Counted from the stretch's first letter, positions 36,371 through 45,375 are shown. The stretch: DNA of 64,000 nucleotides from an archaeon (GCA_029258825.1 JAPDKA010000001.1:35548-99547); one strand, 5' to 3'. A program made the numbers and translations. Notes: generated by a model from the sequence alone, not told the origin.

Positions 36371-37288
36371 ATGGAACACCAAATCCAAATCATAGGAAAC
36401 AGAAAAGATGGAAGGTTGGATAGTCTAGTTAGGGAAGCATTAGATAGTGGTTTATTTAGAAGAGCATATGAAAGAGTGATGGGGATAAGAACAAAACAAA
36501 AAGCAAGAACAAAGCAAGAATCACAAAATATTGAAAAGAAGTTGATAAGTAGTGTTGATGATTTAAAGGAAATTGAGGGTGTTTGTGAACTTCAACCTGG
36601 AAAGTATAACATATATTTTGAAATTGAGATTCCTGAAGGAAGTAAGCTTATATTGCCGGCTGGTGTTGAGCTTTATTTTGCTGAAAATTGTGGCATAACA
36701 TGTGATGGAGAGCTTGAAGTGAAAGGAAAGAAAGGTTTAGAAGTTATAATTAGTGCTTTAGACAAAGACAAAGGATGGAAGAATATTGTGGTTGGAGAAA
36801 AAGGTAAGGCAAAGTTTAATTATGCTAAGGTTAGTTATGGTAGGGGAAGAAAAGATAAAGATGGTGATGTTAGTGGAGGGGCTGTCTCGGTTTATGGGGA
36901 ATTCTATGCTGATAATTCTGTGTTTGAGGAGAATAGTGCAAAATATGGTGGGGCAATAAGGAATTATAAAGGAAAAGTAGAGATAGGGGAGAATAATGTG
37001 TTTAGAGGGAATAGTGCAGAAAATAATGGTGGGGCAATAAGGAATTATAAAGGAAAAGTAGAGATAGGGGAGAATAATGTGTTTAGAGGGAATAGTGCAG
37101 AAAATAATGGTGGGGCAATAAGGAATTATGAAGGAAAAGTAGAGATAGGGGAGAATAATGTGTTTAGGGAGAATAGTGCAGAAAATGATGGTGGGGCAAT
37201 AAGGAATTATGAAGGTGAACTAAATATAGATAAAAGTAAAAACACATTTATAGGAAATAAACCAGATGATATTTATATTGGAGATTAA
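36371..37288 (+). CDS. repeat protein: conserved N-terminal module + Pmp-like (GGAI / FxxN) beta-helix repeats
   Basis: N-terminal 47 aa MEHQIQIIGNRKDGRLDSLVREALDSGLFRRAYERVMGIR nearly identical to the N-terminus of ORF 43408-44460. C-terminal three 27-aa repeats GGAIRNYKGKVEIGENNVFRGNSAENN carry the GGAI and FxxN motifs of polymorphic-membrane-protein type parallel beta-helices. Confidence 0.6.
   Translation: MEHQIQIIGNRKDGRLDSLVREALDSGLFRRAYERVMGIRTKQKARTKQESQNIEKKLISSVDDLKEIEGVCELQPGKYNIYFEIEIPEGSKLILPAGVELYFAENCGITCDGELEVKGKKGLEVIISALDKDKGWKNIVVGEKGKAKFNYAKVSYGRGRKDKDGDVSGGAVSVYGEFYADNSVFEENSAKYGGAIRNYKGKVEIGENNVFRGNSAENNGGAIRNYKGKVEIGENNVFRGNSAENNGGAIRNYEGKVEIGENNVFRENSAENDGGAIRNYEGELNIDKSKNTFIGNKPDDIYIGD
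36947..37189 (+). repeat. 3 x 81-bp near-identical tandem coding repeats
   Basis: ggtggggcaataaggaattataaaggaaaagtagagataggggagaataatgtgtttagagggaatagtgcagaaaataat repeated three times with 1-3 substitutions. Confidence 0.7.
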
Positions 37289-37444: not shown

Positions 37445-37978
37445 ATGGAAAAAAAATTAACCATACTAAAACCATTTTTCGAGAATCCAAATAGGGAATT
37501 TCACATAAGAGAGCTCTCTAGGATGCTCAAAATAAACCATACTACAGTAAGGCAATATCTTAACAAATTCGTGAAAGAAAATTTACTCGAAATGAAGAAG
37601 GAAAGAAAATTTAAATTATTTAAAGCGAAGATTAATAGAAAATTCTTAAACTTAAAATTATTTTATAATTTAGAAAAAATCAGAAAGAGTGGTTTGATAG
37701 AAGATTTAGAAAGAAATTTTGATTTTCCACCAATTGTAATTTTTGGTTCTTATGCTCAAGCTATGGACAACAAAAACAGCGATATTGATATATGTATCAT
37801 TACTAACATTAAGAAAAAATTTAATACAACAAAGTATGAAAAAAAGCTTAATAGAAAATTAAGCTTACATATTTTTTCTGAAAAAGAGTGGGAAAAATTA
37901 AAGGTTACAAATCCAGAATTGGTAAACAGCATTTGTAATGGGATTGTTTTAGCAGGACAGTTAGAAGTAGTAAAATGA
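37445..37978 (+). CDS. wHTH-fused nucleotidyltransferase (MNT)
   Basis: HIRELSRMLKINHTTVRQYLNKFV HTH + IVIFGSYAQAMDNKNSDIDICII GS...DxD motif; paralog of 20223-20789. Confidence 0.65.
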   Translation: MEKKLTILKPFFENPNREFHIRELSRMLKINHTTVRQYLNKFVKENLLEMKKERKFKLFKAKINRKFLNLKLFYNLEKIRKSGLIEDLERNFDFPPIVIFGSYAQAMDNKNSDIDICIITNIKKKFNTTKYEKKLNRKLSLHIFSEKEWEKLKVTNPELVNSICNGIVLAGQLEVVK

Positions 37979-37981
37979 ACT

Positions 37982-38278
37982 TTGAAGAAAGCCTTAAAAA
38001 AGAGTTATGTAAAAAAGGTTAAAAAAGATAAATTTAGAGCAAAAAGCTTGATTAAGTCTGCAGAATTAATTTTAAAGACAATTAAACAAATTCCATTGAA
38101 TAAAACAAGTGCAAATACAATCTTAAGAGAACTTTATGAAGCGCTAAGACAATGCTGCGAAGCTATAGGTTATTTATACAGGTATAAATTTTTATCACAT
38201 GAAGCAATAACTTACTTTATTTCGGATGTTCTTGAAGACAAAAGACTTGCTCTAAAGTTTGATAGATACAGAAAATAA
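37982..38278 (+). CDS. HEPN domain protein
   Basis: 98 aa helical; paralog of 19765-20226; starts 4 nt after the MNT stop. Confidence 0.55.
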   Translation: MKKALKKSYVKKVKKDKFRAKSLIKSAELILKTIKQIPLNKTSANTILRELYEALRQCCEAIGYLYRYKFLSHEAITYFISDVLEDKRLALKFDRYRK

Positions 38279-39686: not shown

Positions 39687-39737
39687 TTTAACGCAAGCTT
39701 TGCGGCATTTAAAAAAGTTTTGTTAAACAAAATAAAG

Positions 39738-39812
39738 TGGGGCTGCCCGGATTCGAACCGGGGTCTCGAGCTCCCAAGGCTCGGATGCTAGACCAGGCTA
39801 CACCACAGCCCC
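39738..39812 (-). tRNA. tRNA-Pro (anticodon UGG)
   Basis: Reverse complement GGGGCUGUGGUGUAGCCUGGUCUAGCAUCCGAGCCUUGGGAGCUCGAGACCCCGGUUCGAAUCCGGGCAGCCCCA; anticodon loop CUUGGGA. Confidence 0.85.
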
Positions 39813-39895: not shown

Positions 39896-41854
39896 ATGAG
39901 TTTTATTTGTTACTATATGATGGTAAAAATGATAAATCAGATTAAAAACAAAGCAGAAAAAGAAAAAAGAGAAGCAAAATTTGAAGGTAGCATCAGTATA
40001 GAAGAAAAAGAAGTAATTATAGATCCTTTAACTAGACTGCCTCAAAAAAATTCTTTTGCCGGTGTAATTGATCCAAAAACTAAGCAAATCAACATCCAAT
40101 ATAAAAAAGAGTATGCTGAAAAGAAACCAGAAAAAACAGAGAAGGTTGTTATAGATATCGAAAGACACGAAATTAACCATATAGGGGATGTAAGAACAAA
40201 AAAAGGATGTCCTGGAACTTTGGAAAAGCACCTTGAAATTTATGAAGCAGTGGCTGAAGTTTTAAAACCTATGGGATATAACCAATTCGATGTTCAATAT
40301 GTGGTTAATGCATTCGAAGATTTCATTGATAATATTAACCTCTCAAACAAATTTGATATAGAGGGATTAATAAGATTCTATGAAGATGTTGGAGAGAACT
40401 GTGAAAGTTTAGTAGAAAAATTTGAGAAGATGTTTAATGTCAAAGTAAAAGCAAAAAGAAAACCAAAATATACTCCATTCTATGAAGCATTTGTTAAGCT
40501 TCAAGCATTGTTCTGGAATCATCCGGAAAAAAGAATTCTTAACAAATACTACACACATAAGCCAGAAATAAAAGAGACTCTTGAAAATTTTCTTGAAAGG
40601 AGTGGTTTAAGAAATTTTAAAAGGAAAATTCATATTGGACGTAAGGTAATAGAAACAAATGAAAAAGATAGAGAAGCTATGCTTAATTATTTAAACGATG
40701 AAGAAAGATGGCCTAAGTTAGCTAAAATTTTTGCAGAAGAATTCAGTAAGTTAATACAGCCAGGTTATGCCTTGCCCATTCCTGGTTTGGGTGGTGCTGG
40801 AACAAGAGGAAGAGAAAACGAAGTTGAAGTAAGAATTAAAGTAAAGAAGAAAAAAAGTGGTGATGAAGATGAAGAAGAAAGTGAGGAAGAAGGAATTGAC
40901 TGGGACAATTTTGAAGAAGGCAACTACTTTGATAGAGAGATGAAGGATCCAGAAAAAAGAAAAGAGCAAGCTTGGAAAGATTTTAACAAAGGTAAAGGTC
41001 GACCAGACTGGCTCAATTATTATGAGGCTTTAGATGCAGTTTATGAAAGACTTGCAAGAAGGCTTAATATTAAAGCAGAGGTTTTTACAAGAACAACAAA
41101 GATGCCTCTTGCTTGGTATGGAAAACGCGACTTTGATCCTGAAAGAGACAAACCAAAGCATTTAACTTTTGGTTTTAATGAGAAAGGTAATGTTGTACGA
41201 AAAAAGAAAAGATGGCACTATGACATGAACCTTGAATACAGAGTTGCTGAAAAAGGTTTTCCGGAAGTTAGGTTTGTTATGGTTGATACCTCTAGTAGTA
41301 TGAAAAAAGACCCAGAAGGTGGAAATAACGTAGGAGACACAAGCTACATTCCTTGGGGAACAAACAGTAAGTATCACTATGCATTACTTGCATGGTATGG
41401 TTTTCTTGAGTATCTAAGGCAAAATCACTTGCTTAAGAAAACAACAATAAGCCTAGCGAATTTCTCTGATGTTACTGTCTTAGCTAAAGGCCTAGAACAA
41501 GCAAAAAAACTTGCTTTAAAACCACAATTTGGAAGCACATATGTAGATCTTGATAAAGTAAAAGAAATTTTAAGCGGGCACGGAAATCTAATATTCACAA
41601 TTTCAGATGGAGAAATATTTAACTGGGAGGACATCAAAGACGAGTTCATCAAGAATGCAAAGAATAATTACTATTTCCATATCCAAATAGGTTCTTCTAA
41701 TGAAGTAACGAATGATTTGGAAGCAGAAGGAATTCCTGTTTACTATGTTAAAGGCGAACTTGATTTGTGGCAGAAAGTAATAGAGATTACTGATAATCTT
41801 TATAGAAAAAAATCTAAAGGAAAACTTTCACTTGCGAAATATTATAAAAAATAG
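39896..41854 (+). CDS. HExxH-motif N-terminal domain + C-terminal von Willebrand factor A (MIDAS) domain protein
   Basis: IERHEINHIGD (HExxH) at ~residue 90; acidic linker DEDEEESEEEG; C-terminal VRFVMVDTSSSMKKD (MIDAS DxSxS), TISLANFSD (Thr) and LIFTISDGE (Asp); 652 aa; directly upstream of the MoxR ATPase. Confidence 0.55.
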   Translation: MSFICYYMMVKMINQIKNKAEKEKREAKFEGSISIEEKEVIIDPLTRLPQKNSFAGVIDPKTKQINIQYKKEYAEKKPEKTEKVVIDIERHEINHIGDVRTKKGCPGTLEKHLEIYEAVAEVLKPMGYNQFDVQYVVNAFEDFIDNINLSNKFDIEGLIRFYEDVGENCESLVEKFEKMFNVKVKAKRKPKYTPFYEAFVKLQALFWNHPEKRILNKYYTHKPEIKETLENFLERSGLRNFKRKIHIGRKVIETNEKDREAMLNYLNDEERWPKLAKIFAEEFSKLIQPGYALPIPGLGGAGTRGRENEVEVRIKVKKKKSGDEDEEESEEEGIDWDNFEEGNYFDREMKDPEKRKEQAWKDFNKGKGRPDWLNYYEALDAVYERLARRLNIKAEVFTRTTKMPLAWYGKRDFDPERDKPKHLTFGFNEKGNVVRKKKRWHYDMNLEYRVAEKGFPEVRFVMVDTSSSMKKDPEGGNNVGDTSYIPWGTNSKYHYALLAWYGFLEYLRQNHLLKKTTISLANFSDVTVLAKGLEQAKKLALKPQFGSTYVDLDKVKEILSGHGNLIFTISDGEIFNWEDIKDEFIKNAKNNYYFHIQIGSSNEVTNDLEAEGIPVYYVKGELDLWQKVIEITDNLYRKKSKGKLSLAKYYKK

Positions 41855-41947
41855 TATGTTACTACATACAAATAGTGAACACCGAAAAATTTATAAGCCC
41901 TGTTGGCTTTATATATTAACTTGATAGTAATAAAATATAAATAAAAA

Positions 41948-43396
41948 ATGAAAATGGAAAAACAAAATAAAAACCTGGAAGAATTAACGTATGAAGAATT
42001 AATGTTGCCTGATGTACAATATTCCACAATAGCAGCAAGAATAGGTGATGTAGAACTCACTGTTTTAGATGTTATAGCTGCGGCTGTACTATCTGGAAGA
42101 TCTCTATTAATAGTTGGACATTCTGAAAAAGGAAAGTCATACATAGCAAGAATGATAAGAGATTATTGGTTCGGGGGAAGAGGCCATCTTATCCAAGCTG
42201 CATCACTTGATGACACCTCTGATCTGTTTACCCAAGTATTCAAGGAGTTAAGTAAAGAACAAGCTTCCGAAATTGTATTAGAAGAAAAACTTGCATATCC
42301 ATTCATTTTTGTCGATGAAGTTGGAGCGGTGCCAAAAGCTCTTCAGTCTCAATTTTGGCCAATTGGAGATGGAAAAATACCACATAAAGGGAAAGAGTAT
42401 TATCTTGGAATCCCAATAGAAGAAAAACAAAATATAAAAAGAAGATATCTATCCTATATAGCCTGTACCAATACAATAAGAGAGAGTGAAGATGGAGAAT
42501 ACAGCAATTTTGGCATTACTAAAGCAACGGCATCAAGATTCCATCTTTTATTAGACACAAGAAGAAAACTTAGAAGAAAAGAGGAGGACATTATAGATAT
42601 TATTATGTCAGATAATGTTGATGTAAGACATACAGAAACAATAGAAAAAAAAGACATAACACACAAAATAATTAATGCTCATAAAAAAATAATCAAGTTA
42701 GCTGAGAATACATCAATAGAAGAACGCATTGTTCTTGCATATTTAGGAATCGGAACTGGAAAATGTAAAAAAGGAGAAAAATATGAAGATGGGTGGCAAT
42801 TAAAATGTATGGATTGTAAAGAACAAGAAGACTGTCCTAATGCATATTTGTTTAATTATGAAATGTTAAGACAAGTAAAAAATATTAAAATATTTGCTAA
42901 TGCTTTATATTATGTGGCTTCCTTAAAAAGTAAAGGGGTAAATGGCCAAGTGGACCCTTATGATGCTGTTTTTGAGGCTGCAAAATTTGTTATAGCAGGA
43001 AAGTACTCTACAATGAATGAACTCTTGATGAGAGAAAAACAGTTACCGGATTATGATTTTGTTGAAAATGCGATAGACAAACTAAAACAAGAATTCAACA
43101 AAGTAAGGCCATTCATAGAAGTAAGCATTGAGGTGGCCGAAAAATATGGTGAGGTTGTAACTCAGTTTTATGAAGATAATAATAGAGTATATCCAATAAG
43201 CGAAAGATTCTTTGAAGAAGTAGGTAAGGCCAGAGGATTGAAAGGAGAAAAACTTCAATCCTACGTTAAAGAAATCTACAATGAAATTCAAAAAAGCAAC
43301 ATAATAGAGCCATACAATGATAATGGCTATGTCTCCCTATCTTGGTTCCCAAAACTACTTGAAAGATATATAACAAAATTAAAGCAAGAAAAATAA
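41948..43396 (+). CDS. MoxR-like AAA+ ATPase with C-terminal Cys-cluster extension
   Basis: Walker A LLIVGHSEKGKSYIARMI, Walker B FIFVDEVGAVP, sensor region ACTNTIRESEDGEYSNFGITKATASRFHLLLD (MoxR AT-NP...L-RF-like); C-terminal CKKGEKYEDGWQLKCMDCKEQEDCPNAY. Confidence 0.65.
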   Translation: MKMEKQNKNLEELTYEELMLPDVQYSTIAARIGDVELTVLDVIAAAVLSGRSLLIVGHSEKGKSYIARMIRDYWFGGRGHLIQAASLDDTSDLFTQVFKELSKEQASEIVLEEKLAYPFIFVDEVGAVPKALQSQFWPIGDGKIPHKGKEYYLGIPIEEKQNIKRRYLSYIACTNTIRESEDGEYSNFGITKATASRFHLLLDTRRKLRRKEEDIIDIIMSDNVDVRHTETIEKKDITHKIINAHKKIIKLAENTSIEERIVLAYLGIGTGKCKKGEKYEDGWQLKCMDCKEQEDCPNAYLFNYEMLRQVKNIKIFANALYYVASLKSKGVNGQVDPYDAVFEAAKFVIAGKYSTMNELLMREKQLPDYDFVENAIDKLKQEFNKVRPFIEVSIEVAEKYGEVVTQFYEDNNRVYPISERFFEEVGKARGLKGEKLQSYVKEIYNEIQKSNIIEPYNDNGYVSLSWFPKLLERYITKLKQEK

Positions 43397-43407
43397 ACAA
43401 AGCTAAA

Positions 43408-44460
43408 ATGGAAAACAAAATTTTGATTATAGGAAACAGAAAAGGTGGAAGGTTGGAGGGTTTAGTTAGGGAAGCATTAGATAGTGGTTTATTTAGAAGA
43501 GTATATGAAAAGGTGATGGGGATAAGGAGAGAGAAGAAACGGGAAGAAATAAAAAGCAAGCCAATTTCAAAATTAGAATCTGGACTGTATATTGGTGGAG
43601 ATTTTACTAAAGTTGGTCGTTTGAAATTGGATGATAGAGGTATTGTAAAGTATGAGAATGGTAGAATAGAGAAGGTTGTGGATGGGTTTGATTGGATTGA
43701 GCATTTCATTGAGAAGGATGGTGTGTTGTATATTGGTGGAGGTTTCACTAAGGTTGGTGGTTTGAAATTGAATGATAGAGGTATTGTAAAGTATGAGAAT
43801 GGTAGAATAGAGAAGGTTGTGGATGGGTTTAATGGTCGGATTAAGCATTTCATTGAGAAAGATGGTGTGTTGTATATAGGTGGAGGTTTTACTAAGGTTG
43901 ATGGTTTGAAATTGGATGGTTGTGGTATTGTAAAGTATGAGAATGGTAGAATAGAGAAGGTTGTGGATGGGTTTAATGATCGGATTATGCATTTCATTGA
44001 GAAAGATGGTGTGTTGTATATTGGTGGAGGTTTCACTAAGGTTGGTGGTTTGAAATTGGATGGTTGTGGTATTGTAAAGTATGAGAATGGTAGAATAGAG
44101 AAGGTTGTGGATGGGTTTAATGATTGGATTATGCATTTCATTGAGAAGGATGGTGTGTTGTATATAGGTGGAGGTTTTACTAAGGTTGATGGTTTGAAAT
44201 TGGATGGCAGAGGTATTGTAAAGTATGAGAATGGTAGAATAGAGAGGGTTGTGGATGGGTTTGATGATCGGATTAAGCATTTCATTGAGAAGGATGGTGT
44301 GTTGTATATTGGTGGAGGTTTTACTAAGGTTGATGGTTTGAAATTGGATGGCAGAGGTATTGTAAAGTATGAGAATGGTAGAATAGAGAGGGTTGTGGAT
44401 GGGTTTGATGATTGGATTAGGCATTTCATGGAAATTAAAAATAAAACAAAATTAGAATGA
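43408..44460 (+). CDS. repeat protein: conserved N-terminal module + six 47-aa Kelch-like (beta-propeller blade) repeats
   Basis: N-terminus MENKILIIGNRKGGRLEGLVREALDSGLFRRVYEKVMGIR shared with ORF 36371-37288. Six repeats LYIGGGFTKVxGLKLDxxGIVKYENGRIEKVVDGFxxxIxHFIEKDGV with a GG doublet and conserved Y/W/G spacing reminiscent of Kelch blades. Confidence 0.6.
   Translation: MENKILIIGNRKGGRLEGLVREALDSGLFRRVYEKVMGIRREKKREEIKSKPISKLESGLYIGGDFTKVGRLKLDDRGIVKYENGRIEKVVDGFDWIEHFIEKDGVLYIGGGFTKVGGLKLNDRGIVKYENGRIEKVVDGFNGRIKHFIEKDGVLYIGGGFTKVDGLKLDGCGIVKYENGRIEKVVDGFNDRIMHFIEKDGVLYIGGGFTKVGGLKLDGCGIVKYENGRIEKVVDGFNDWIMHFIEKDGVLYIGGGFTKVDGLKLDGRGIVKYENGRIERVVDGFDDRIKHFIEKDGVLYIGGGFTKVDGLKLDGRGIVKYENGRIERVVDGFDDWIRHFMEIKNKTKLE
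43585..44430 (+). repeat. 6 x 141-bp near-identical tandem repeats (coding)
   Basis: Period-141 repetition seen directly, e.g. ttgtatattggtggaggtttcactaaggttggtggtttgaaattg...gagaatggtagaatagagaaggttgtggatgggttt recurring at 43729, 43870, 44011, 44152 and 44293 with few substitutions; this also generates long spurious ORFs on the minus strand. Confidence 0.8.
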
Positions 44461-44502
44461 AACACTAAATTTAAATCATAGGAAAAAACAGATTTTCTCC
44501 TT

Positions 44503-45126
44503 TTATTTCTTCTCCTCGTTACCTTCTTCCTTCTTTTCCTCGGCTGGCTTTTCAGCTGGCTTCACTTTTTTCTCGAGTTGTGCTTTGATTGTTTCTAGTT
44601 CTCGTTTTAGTTTAGCTTGCTTTTCTGGGCTAACTGTTAGCATTTCTTGTTCAGCTTTTGCTATAAGATCGTCATATTTACCTTCTTCAACCTCTTTAAT
44701 AACTTCCCTAGGATCTTTACTTTCGACTAATACACCCATACTAACACAACTACCAAGCACTGTTTTAAGAGCATTCTTCAAACTTAATGTCGGCAATGCT
44801 TCAAGCTTTGACTTAGCTATGTTTATTGCCTGTTCTATAGCAAGATTACCGACCTTAATTACATGCGGTTGTGATGATGCAGTCTCTATGCTGAGTTCCT
44901 TCTTAATTAATTCAGTCGCAGGCGGTGTTAAAACTTTAACATTAAAGTCTTTAGTTTTCGTATCTATGTCAAGCACAACAGGAACACGCATACCTTTAAA
45001 CTGTTGAGTAGCTTTGTTAACTTCACTAATTACCTTACCTAAATTAATACCTAAAGGCCCAAGCTTTTGGCTGATGTCTGGGCCTGGCTTCATGTTGCCG
45101 CCTTCAACAAGTATCTTGATTTCCAT
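44503..45126 (-). CDS. rpl11: ribosomal protein L11 (uL11) with K/E-rich C-terminal extension
   Basis: From internal Met: MEIKILVEGGNMKPGPDISQKLGPLGINLGKV...VLTPPATELIKK...GSCVSMGV matches uL11. The track ORF (to 45297) has a 57-aa non-conserved N-terminal over-extension. ~70-aa K/E-rich tail. Confidence 0.8.
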   Translation of the reverse strand: MEIKILVEGGNMKPGPDISQKLGPLGINLGKVISEVNKATQQFKGMRVPVVLDIDTKTKDFNVKVLTPPATELIKKELSIETASSQPHVIKVGNLAIEQAINIAKSKLEALPTLSLKNALKTVLGSCVSMGVLVESKDPREVIKEVEEGKYDDLIAKAEQEMLTVSPEKQAKLKRELETIKAQLEKKVKPAEKPAEEKKEEGNEEKK

Positions 45127-45375
45127 ATTTGAGTTAGCACCATAAACATTTTTAAATTTTTGCATTCTTAGATTTGTATCTGCAATGAAGACTGTATTGT
45201 GACAGGATGTACAATAGATTGTCAAAGCAGGTTTGAACAAGAAAGGATGAGCATATGCATACTGCCAGAATTGCCTATTCCAACGCAACGAATACAACTA
45301 GGCTATGAGTGTATATAGCTAATAAATGTTCATGGCAAAAACAAAATAAAAAATAAAAAATTAATAAAAATAAAC

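Follow-up and report, generated by a model that had tools for sequence, protein, structure and literature searches.

A 64,000-nucleotide stretch of archaeal DNA (GCA_029258825.1 JAPDKA010000001.1:35548-99547, GC content about 32%; hereafter the window) contains three genes, g1, g2, and g3, all on the plus strand and separated by only 93 nt (g1 to g2) and 11 nt (g2 to g3). The original prediction, made from the window sequence, had described them as a co-directional trio with these gaps, and their coordinates and strand are borne out (Table 1). The first gene encodes a protein, designated G1 along with its homologs, that combines an HExxH motif with a von Willebrand factor type A (vWA) domain, while the second encodes a MoxR-like AAA+ ATPase. 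The third, together with an open reading frame (ORF) beginning at position 36371, encodes what we designate head-tagged, or H, proteins. Models of VWA, AAA, Kelch, and peptidase domains from Pfam and NCBIfam all stayed short of their thresholds in g1, g2, and g3, and domain assignments therefore rest on motifs, family-level matches, and predicted structure. Hidden Markov model (HMM) searches, proposed by the original prediction as a check, thus came out negative for Kelch and VWA in the window proteins and for AAA_5 and AAA_3 in g2 itself, with the latter two found among g2 relatives.

A scan for G1 that took one genome per species, from 185,579 species, found 64 loci, nearly all labelled Woesearchaeota, Pacearchaeota, or Nanoarchaeota (DPANN archaea); a few are short contigs whose labels resemble binning errors. 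De novo ORF calls followed by clustering gave the gene content of two sets of loci, one of 34 non-redundant loci whose upstream flank reaches 5 kb or more and a second of 31 whose flanks reach 3 kb or more on both sides. The ATPase is encoded on the same strand as G1 in 33 of the 34, and is present in 30 of the 31 well-flanked loci. That second set also shows at least two head-sharing ORFs in 28 loci, a reverse transcriptase (RT) of the type found in diversity-generating retroelements (DGRs) in 17, and a small ORF of about 50 residues in 20. The canonical order is the small ORF, the ATPase (390-530 residues), several proteins of about 230-370 residues, G1, more of those same proteins, and often an RVT_1 RT. 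The order G1-ATPase-H seen in the window is a sublineage variant, and recurs at locus L075, where the ATPase is 42% identical. The invariant core consists of the MoxR-like AAA+ ATPase and G1, the latter with its HExxH motif and a vWA domain whose metal ion-dependent adhesion site (MIDAS) is complete. The trio is a conserved cassette, present in the window as a reduced copy with no RT in the 64 kb. Co-location in other genomes was the test on which the original prediction had staked its claim that the genes are functionally linked, and the ATPase counts uphold that claim. Its picture of three genes as the full system has to be given up, since the canonical cassette adds a small DNA-binding-like protein, several H paralogs, and often a DGR RT.

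Alternative starts for g1 are possible at M8 or M12; database versions have 645 and 641 residues. In an alignment of 57 G1 sequences, 26-58% identical, residues H91, H95, P106, N138, and D142 of the N-terminal part and D464, S466, T548, D571, and G572 of the C-terminal part are invariant, while E92, G104, C105, and S468 are retained in at least 90%. The HEINH and MIDAS motifs that had been read directly from the first gene are therefore not only present but invariant or nearly so across the family. In g1, the MIDAS pattern DxSxS...T...D is formed by D464, S466, S468, T548, and D571, and the C-terminus has the Rossmann-like fold of vWA domains. Not one of the 57 family members matches a Pfam VWA model at E-values up to 0.1, and the G1 profile finds no PDB sequence at E-values up to 10. 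A collection of 5.8 billion proteins yielded 96 homologs, none with an informative Pfam domain; those with a named source come from DPANN archaea.

The predicted order of elements in the HExxH region, namely three strands, a helix ending in HExxH, and then helices that carry NAFED, is compatible with a minimal zincin. In full-length fold searches vWA matches dominate, and the sole peptidase-named match, from a viral library, stands at rank 45 (E 0.011). The Pfam family DUF2268 gives one match, at E 0.046, among the 57 members. For the HExxH segment, then, conservation is established and a zincin fold is not demonstrated by these searches. The top BFVD fold matches of G1 are phage vWA proteins, with most of the length aligned at low TM-scores. 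In Thermus phage P23-45 (L078, 27112-29624), an AAA_5 ATPase of 270 residues adjoins a 563-residue vWA protein that is VWA_CoxE-like; no sequence-profile relationship of G1 to that protein was detected, hhalign of the G1 profile against it giving a probability of 7%.

The product of g2 has the features of an AAA+ core: Walker A, Walker B, a sensor-1 Asn, and conserved Arg residues. Residues K63, E124, N175, R197, and R308 are kept in 60 or 61 of the 61 sequences in the family alignment; the Walker A motif of g2 has E60 at a position that is Gly in most members. By itself g2 matches neither AAA_5 nor AAA_3, its best Pfam match being Sigma54_activat at E 0.11. When the 61 relatives are scanned singly, AAA_5 matches 42 (best E 1.5e-10), AAA_3 matches 24, and bpMoxR (PF20030), which describes the MoxR of MoxR-vWA-beta-propeller ternary systems, weakly matches 16. 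The AlphaFold2 model of g2 (pLDDT 92), searched by Foldseek, finds the MoxR protein CHU_0153 (PDB 2r44, E 1.9e-9) first, followed by RavA and MCM, and the family profile finds 2r44 among PDB sequences at E 2.6e-9. Word-index protein search gave only five relatives, a repeat with the ATPase alignment returned the same six proteins and nothing further, and a profile search, run against 1.84 billion representatives, recovered 265 clusters at E-values up to 0.001. These searches indicate a small family, set apart from mainstream MoxR.

The MoxR assignment of the original prediction is sustained by these motifs and by the match to 2r44. The unusual C-terminal Cys tail that it described is instead internal, at residues 273-296 of 482, and is a trait of the family, with C273 retained in 54, C287 in 52, and C290 in 53 of the 61 sequences. 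It is probably a conserved internal zinc knuckle. The sequence TTTATATATT in the AT-rich spacer ahead of g2 is possibly an internal archaeal promoter. Relatives of 600-690 residues were considered as candidate Rosetta-stone fusions of the ATPase to a binder, and were rejected as such because they carry helical extensions and no DGR-target ends.

The H proteins share a distinctive architecture. Among 179 listed N-termini, all paralogs within a locus open with the same 25-45 residues. This head begins as a short hydrophobic strand, continues as an amphipathic helix, and leads through a charged or proline-rich linker to bodies that can be unrelated folds. A cassette encodes from one to more than ten such proteins; L001 has eleven, including WD40 propellers, and L007 has fourteen or more. 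Pfam searches with nine H and small proteins from related loci found nothing. We also considered whether H proteins resemble AvpA, the nanoarchaeal DGR target of solved structure, and rejected the idea at the level of sequence: three single H proteins and a 15-member profile gave no PDB match, and the published AvpA motifs differ.

In the window, the heads of g3 and ORF 36371 are 66% identical over 56 residues (E 2e-18), which confirms that the N-terminal module of g3 is duplicated within the window; no third copy was found in the 64 kb. An ortholog that has both the head and the beta-helix body of ORF 36371 lies directly downstream of the ATPase in L075, and ORF 36371 therefore belongs to the system. 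The window head resembles the L001/L009 class (IxIIGN...L..LVREA versus VLGN...ID.LLRKAG).

The body of g3 does consist of near-identical repeats, as had been noted, but they cannot be called Kelch-like, since g3 matches no Kelch family in Pfam at E-values up to 1. Weak Pfam matches are to propeller repeats (Reg_prop, 5.7e-5; Rax2, 4.4e-4; DUF5122, 0.31). Comparison with the seven-bladed PLL/PHL lectins of Photorhabdus gives E 0.0045 over 223 residues, and among PHROGs g3 matches phrog_5490 at 1e-29. The repeats look like a lectin-like propeller, and roughly nine positions of the repeat are variable. Two ORFs run antisense across them, 43266-44465 (-) of 399 residues and 43573-44424 (-) of 283 residues, and a length-greedy ORF caller chooses an antisense ORF instead of g3. 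The antisense ORFs are an artefact of stop-free repeats; the frame with the conserved head is that of g3. Loci L076 and L077 have the identical trio on contigs that break off inside the g3 repeats, and g3 is therefore probably often truncated or missing in metagenome bins.

The body of ORF 36371 matches Chlam_PMP (3.8e-10) and POMP_repeat (2.3e-14) in Pfam and NCBIfam. Tandem repeats at 36919-37215 (81 nt in 3.7 copies, 95% match) encode its PMP/beta-helix units. With young repeat arrays in both g3 and ORF 36371, such arrays may supply variation locally instead of a DGR.

One metagenome-assembled genome carries two cassettes, L034 and L038. Comparison of the two gives 83% identity for G1, 83% for the ATPase, and 62-63% for H bodies in matching positions. 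Their heads show only 33% identity between the cassettes and 80-100% within each. Judged by these alignments, the head changes faster between L034 and L038 than all other parts and yet is uniform within a cassette. Such behaviour would be expected of a cassette-specific docking or address element. The combination of constant head and diversifying body, first suggested from g3, is thus a general property of the family, seen both in this pair and in the listed N-termini.

RVT_1 matches were found in cassette relatives, and the linkage to DGRs extends to their repeats. In L002, L008, and L010, a segment of 80-97 nt just upstream of the RT matches the 3' ends of every H gene at 77-89% identity, and the mismatches fall almost entirely at adenines of the RT-adjacent copy (one example has 14 A>G, 3 A>T, and 2 mismatches of other kinds). 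Adenine-specific mismatches are the signature of a DGR, and the H proteins of these three loci are therefore true DGR targets. An RT accompanied by template and variable repeats with adenine mismatches, the combination that defines a DGR, is found in relatives and not in the window, where tblastn with two cassette RTs gave a best E-value of 1.9 over these 64 kb of the 205-kb contig. Large H arrays without an RT occur in L001, L007, L009, and L068, for each of which 15-22 kb were examined. The core occurs both with DGR targets and with RT-free arrays; it thus goes with binder diversity of either source. The RT-free versions suggest that the core machine needs no adjacent DGR and can use other binder diversity.

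The small ORF that precedes the ATPase in loci within L002-L066 (for example L004 4661-4804 and L002 3884-4033) is of two unrelated kinds. By eye, cluster 3 (18 loci) is AbrB/SpoVT-like and cluster 4 (14 loci) is ribbon-helix-helix-like; neither has a Pfam match. The two kinds are probably alternative operon regulators. PADLOC and PHROGs returned nothing for G1, the ATPase, the H proteins, or these small ORFs, apart from the g3 match given above.

Table 1. Features of the cassette and its surroundings, in positions of the 64,000-nt window.
Feature	Positions	Strand	Description
ORF 36371	36371-37288	+	Second head-tagged binder, 3.5 kb upstream of g1; head and PMP-repeat (beta-helix type) body
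ORF 36371 head	36371-36502	+	Shared with g3
Nucleotidyltransferase	37445-37978		Polbeta/NTP_transf_2 with N-terminal helix-turn-helix
98-residue ORF	37982-38278		Directly after the nucleotidyltransferase; no Pfam match
tRNA-Pro(TGG)	39737-39812	-	83 nt upstream of g1
g1 (G1)	39896-41854	+	652 residues; N-terminal alpha/beta domain with HExxH, acidic low-confidence linker, C-terminal vWA with complete MIDAS
HEINH of g1	40166-40180	+	Residues 91-95; C-terminal end of predicted helix 81-96
GCP of g1	40205-40213	+	Conserved, downstream of HEINH
NAFED of g1	40307-40321	+	Conserved, downstream of HEINH
vWA domain of g1	41258-41815	+	MIDAS residues inside
MIDAS DTSSS	41285-41299	+	Residues 464-468; read from sequence
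MIDAS T548	41537-41539	+	Read from sequence
MIDAS SDG	41603-41611	+	Residues 570-572; read from sequence
g1-g2 spacer	41855-41947	+	93 nt, AT-rich; TTTATATATT about 35-40 nt ahead of the g2 ATG
g2	41948-43396	+	482 residues; MoxR-like AAA+ ATPase with helical C-terminal extension
Walker A of g2	42116-42139	+	GHSEKGKS; read from sequence
Walker B of g2	42302-42319	+	FIFVDE; read from sequence
Cys cluster of g2	42764-42835	+	C273-x13-C287-x2-C290-x5-C296; after the ATPase core
g3	43408-44460	+	350 residues; head, charged linker, about six 48-residue propeller-type repeats
g3 head	43408-43539	+	Residues 1-44; matches head of ORF 36371
g3 repeats	43586-44429	+	Tandem Repeats Finder: 144-nt unit in 5.9 copies, 94% match

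Upstream of the cassette in the window lie, in order, genes for MetRS, a diphthamide-synthesis protein, ORF 36371, a nucleotidyltransferase with a small partner, SepF, a prefoldin subunit, L37ae, and tRNA-Pro; downstream are L11 and then a Rad51/RadB-type recombinase. The flanks are archaeal housekeeping genes. An integration island at tRNA-Pro was considered and rejected, since the cassette is located 5' of the tRNA amid housekeeping genes and searches of the window turned up neither an integrase nor a regulator homolog. A viral origin of the cassette was not supported, as no relatives were found on 2.9 million IMG/VR viral contigs; tblastn of G1 against 50,697 phage records also found no match. 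The gene for L11 at 44503-45297 (-) adjoins the window cassette, and the L008 cassette, whose G1 is about 29% identical, is near L1-L10-P1 (7636-9393, -); this proximity may reflect a shared chromosomal neighbourhood or coincidence.

The nucleotidyltransferase and the ORF directly after it look like an MNT/HEPN-type pair. The former has homologs (cluster c7) directly ahead of the cassette in L010, L012, L023, L024, and L045, with partners of 157-180 residues; the small alpha-helical partner near relatives' cassettes is HEPN-like by eye. Downstream of the cassette in L012, L014, L026, L034, L055, and L060 are an ORF of about 390-450 residues that by eye is tyrosine recombinase-like (cluster c8) and another of about 270-365 residues with an N-terminal membrane segment and, by eye, a restriction-endonuclease-like C-terminus (cluster c10). 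Neither cluster has a homolog in the window. Recombinase-, nuclease-, and nucleotidyltransferase/HEPN-like neighbours are common in variable genome regions, and in some lineages the cassette may lie on or beside an integrative element. L006, on a 169-kb JGI contig (Ga0598292_0000013), encodes a G1 homolog of 38% identity and the ATPase within a long same-strand run of ORFs. Many of these are small, with no Pfam match among them, and the head class is distinct (LGTKP...DPEEVARQINEE). Possibly the L006 region is virus-like or represents a large mobile element.

Among described systems, the closest in organization are the MoxR-vWA ternary conflict systems (Kaur et al. 2020, PMC7159879), of which DGR-diversified forms are known in multicellular bacteria (Dore et al. 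2024, PMC10907252). As in those systems, a MoxR-clade AAA+ ATPase adjoins a vWA/MIDAS protein and a variable third component; the ternary systems also include a peptidase among their components, and in some cases a DGR-diversified ligand-binding domain. Several features separate the cassette from them. Its propeller is on a separate head-tagged protein rather than fused to vWA as in the propeller subtype, its diversified domains are on separate small proteins tied to the core only by the shared head, an HExxH domain forms the N-terminal part of its vWA protein, and its hosts are DPANN archaea rather than multicellular bacteria. Pfam and PADLOC scans detected no VMAP, iSTAND, or FtsH in the neighbourhoods or in G1, and with no vWA-fused propeller either, the defining feature of each described ternary subtype is lacking. 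The classical MoxR-vWA pairs include CbbQ-CbbO, NorQ-NorD, and Rea1, whose MIDAS binds ubiquitin-like (UBL) domains (PMC7159879). Compared with these and with CoxD-CoxE, CobS-CobT, RavA-ViaA, and Rea1/Midasin, the cassette has no recurrent enzyme client, and no recurring client gene was found in the neighbourhoods of G1 loci. Its partners are instead multi-copy, diversifying binding proteins. It differs further in the conserved HExxH of G1 and the conserved Cys knuckle of the ATPase, and in that both G1 and the window ATPase fall below every Pfam VWA or AAA threshold.

DGR cassettes of DPANN archaea and the candidate phyla radiation (CPR) have been described (Paul et al. 2015, PMC4372165; Wu et al. 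2018, PMC5758913; Handa et al. 2016, PMC5006420), and cassette relatives resemble them in having an RT, a template repeat, and several targets variable at the 3' end; the window, unlike them, has neither RT nor template repeat. The papers covered make no mention of the ATPase/G1 pair or the shared head. In CPR bacteria an ATPase has been reported fused to the target, whereas the DPANN cassette encodes it as a separate gene.

Polymorphic toxins and similar arrays keep a constant N-terminus and vary the C-terminus. Tandem H paralogs likewise keep an N-terminal module while C-terminal domains are swapped or diversified. Unlike such arrays, however, the heads are only about 25-45 residues long, the bodies are binding scaffolds rather than toxins, no immunity-like genes alternate with the H genes, and a dedicated ATPase/vWA core is always present.

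Full-text literature searches on DGRs, DPANN, or Woesearchaeota together with MoxR, vWA, or AAA ATPases found no description of the system, a result whose scope did not extend to Paul et al. 2017 (Nat Microbiol 2:17045), the principal survey of DGRs in DPANN and CPR organisms, which may already mention these neighbours. Because G1 is invisible to Pfam and the ATPase only faintly visible, the link could escape domain-based surveys. By its sequences, the system would be of MoxR-vWA type, with an adaptor that joins HExxH to vWA and with binders that carry the head and are often diversified by a DGR. No published description was found, in agreement with the original prediction of an undescribed system.

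On balance, and with some reserve, we favour a reading in which the ATPase and G1 form one cytoplasmic machine that recognizes the head common to the H proteins and works on this set of diversified binders. The analogy of CbbQ-CbbO, NorQ-NorD, and Rea1-MIDAS suggests that one G1 would dock on each hexameric ATPase ring. The shared head would be captured by the G1 MIDAS, or through strand addition in the HExxH cleft, and ATP hydrolysis would then remodel or process the bound H protein or its cargo. The role we prefer is that of a sensor or adaptor panel feeding one effector core, in a conflict or recognition system; in the window copy, diversity would come from repeat-array variation or fixed paralogs and not from a DGR. 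By a hydrophobicity scan with a 19-residue window, which is a crude test of localization, a hydrophobic segment is found in none of 74 G1 proteins and in 5 of 206 H proteins, all five internal, and no signal peptide or membrane helix is predicted in any cassette component. The machine is therefore probably cytoplasmic. A cytoplasmic sensor/adaptor panel is favoured both by this lack of export signals and by the parallel with DGR-diversified MoxR-vWA systems (PMC10907252).

Several observations weigh against this reading. Published opinion on DPANN DGR targets leans towards cell-cell attachment (PMC6349945). The window has no RT, no small-regulator homolog, and a single adjacent H gene. No PADLOC defence model matches the cassette, no toxin-like effector was seen in it, and the scan used for localization is crude. 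Binding of the head to G1 or the ATPase is proposed by analogy. Gene conversion or duplication alone could produce the head identity seen within cassettes. An HMM of the L001/L009 heads finds ORF 36371 only at E 0.0034 in a set of 1,127 proteins, a weak homology; the stronger link of the window head to the family is the L075 ortholog.

The most serious competitor, which we regard as possible but on the unlikely side, is host attachment, with H proteins as adhesins displayed by an episymbiotic archaeon, the head as an export or anchoring tag, and the ATPase and G1 assembling or loading them. In Acidianus two-tailed virus (ATV), the MoxR protein p618 and the vWA protein p892 are thought to serve tail growth, and ATV ORF892 stands at rank 36 among the BFVD fold matches of G1. 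The H bodies resemble ligand-binding scaffolds (DGR-target ends, WD40, lectin-like propeller, PMP beta-helix). Cell-cell attachment has been proposed for DPANN DGR targets (PMC6349945; PMC5006420), and the L002 cassette has type IV pilus genes (T2SSE, T2SSF) as neighbours. Those pilus genes, however, occur at one locus only, the charged heads are unlike Sec, Tat, or pilin-type signals, and heads, G1, and ATPase alike have no detected signal peptide or membrane segment.

Leader processing is a doubtful alternative that overlaps with the cytoplasmic machine we favour and is compatible with it. The head would be a propeptide that the HExxH domain of G1 removes, with the cut perhaps following a conserved hydrophobic-hydrophobic-Gly motif near residue 10, while the ATPase feeds the substrate and the binder is activated or released. 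The HExxH motif, E92, N138, and D142 vary little or not at all in the family. Zincins hold their substrates as an extra beta-strand, and many head classes start with a short strand that ends in Gly followed by charge (IIGN, ILGD, FMGK, IFGK). Other classes, however, have no such Gly motif (NPWKY, NPFADP, LFDK), and a zincin fold is not demonstrated by the full-length searches. Moreover, only about ten residues would come off.

Quality control, in which a MoxR chaperone, vWA adaptor, and HExxH protease would fold or remove misfolded DGR variants with the head as a handle, seems quite improbable. DGR linkage in 17 of the 31 well-flanked loci, with targets verified in three, speaks for it, and the combination of AAA+ ATPase and HExxH site is reminiscent of FtsH. 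The core, however, is kept with no RT in the examined stretch both in the window and in the fixed paralog arrays of L001, L007, L009, and L068, and MoxR ATPases are not known to act as processive unfoldases. That this is an ordinary MoxR-vWA maturation pair for metal insertion or enzyme activation, of the CoxDE, NorQD, or CbbQO type, beside an unrelated repeat protein by chance, is highly improbable. Head-tagged paralogs accompany the pair in 28 of 31 loci as well as in the sublineage of the window itself, no client enzyme gene recurs nearby, and the ATPase family is small and separate from mainstream MoxR.

DGRs are common in DPANN archaea, and the role of their hypervariable targets has so far been guessed, usually as attachment. 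Many of these targets are accompanied by a fixed MoxR-like ATPase, an HExxH/vWA adaptor, and a shared N-terminal tag, which opens hypotheses of tag-adaptor binding, ATP-dependent remodelling, and zinc-dependent cleavage. If the pairing of tag and core is cassette-specific, as the two-cassette genome suggests, it could offer a small orthogonal docking system for protein engineering. We advance, as a tentative idea with the odds against it, that the whole is a modular, programmable recognition machine, with a library of binders diversified somatically by a DGR or in the germ line by paralog and repeat expansion, a cassette-specific tag, and one AAA+/vWA/zinc-peptidase core. If so, the core would destroy, process, or signal on whatever the binder has caught, and the system would be an archaeal counterpart of variable receptors with a common effector, possibly directed against viruses or acting on host proteins.

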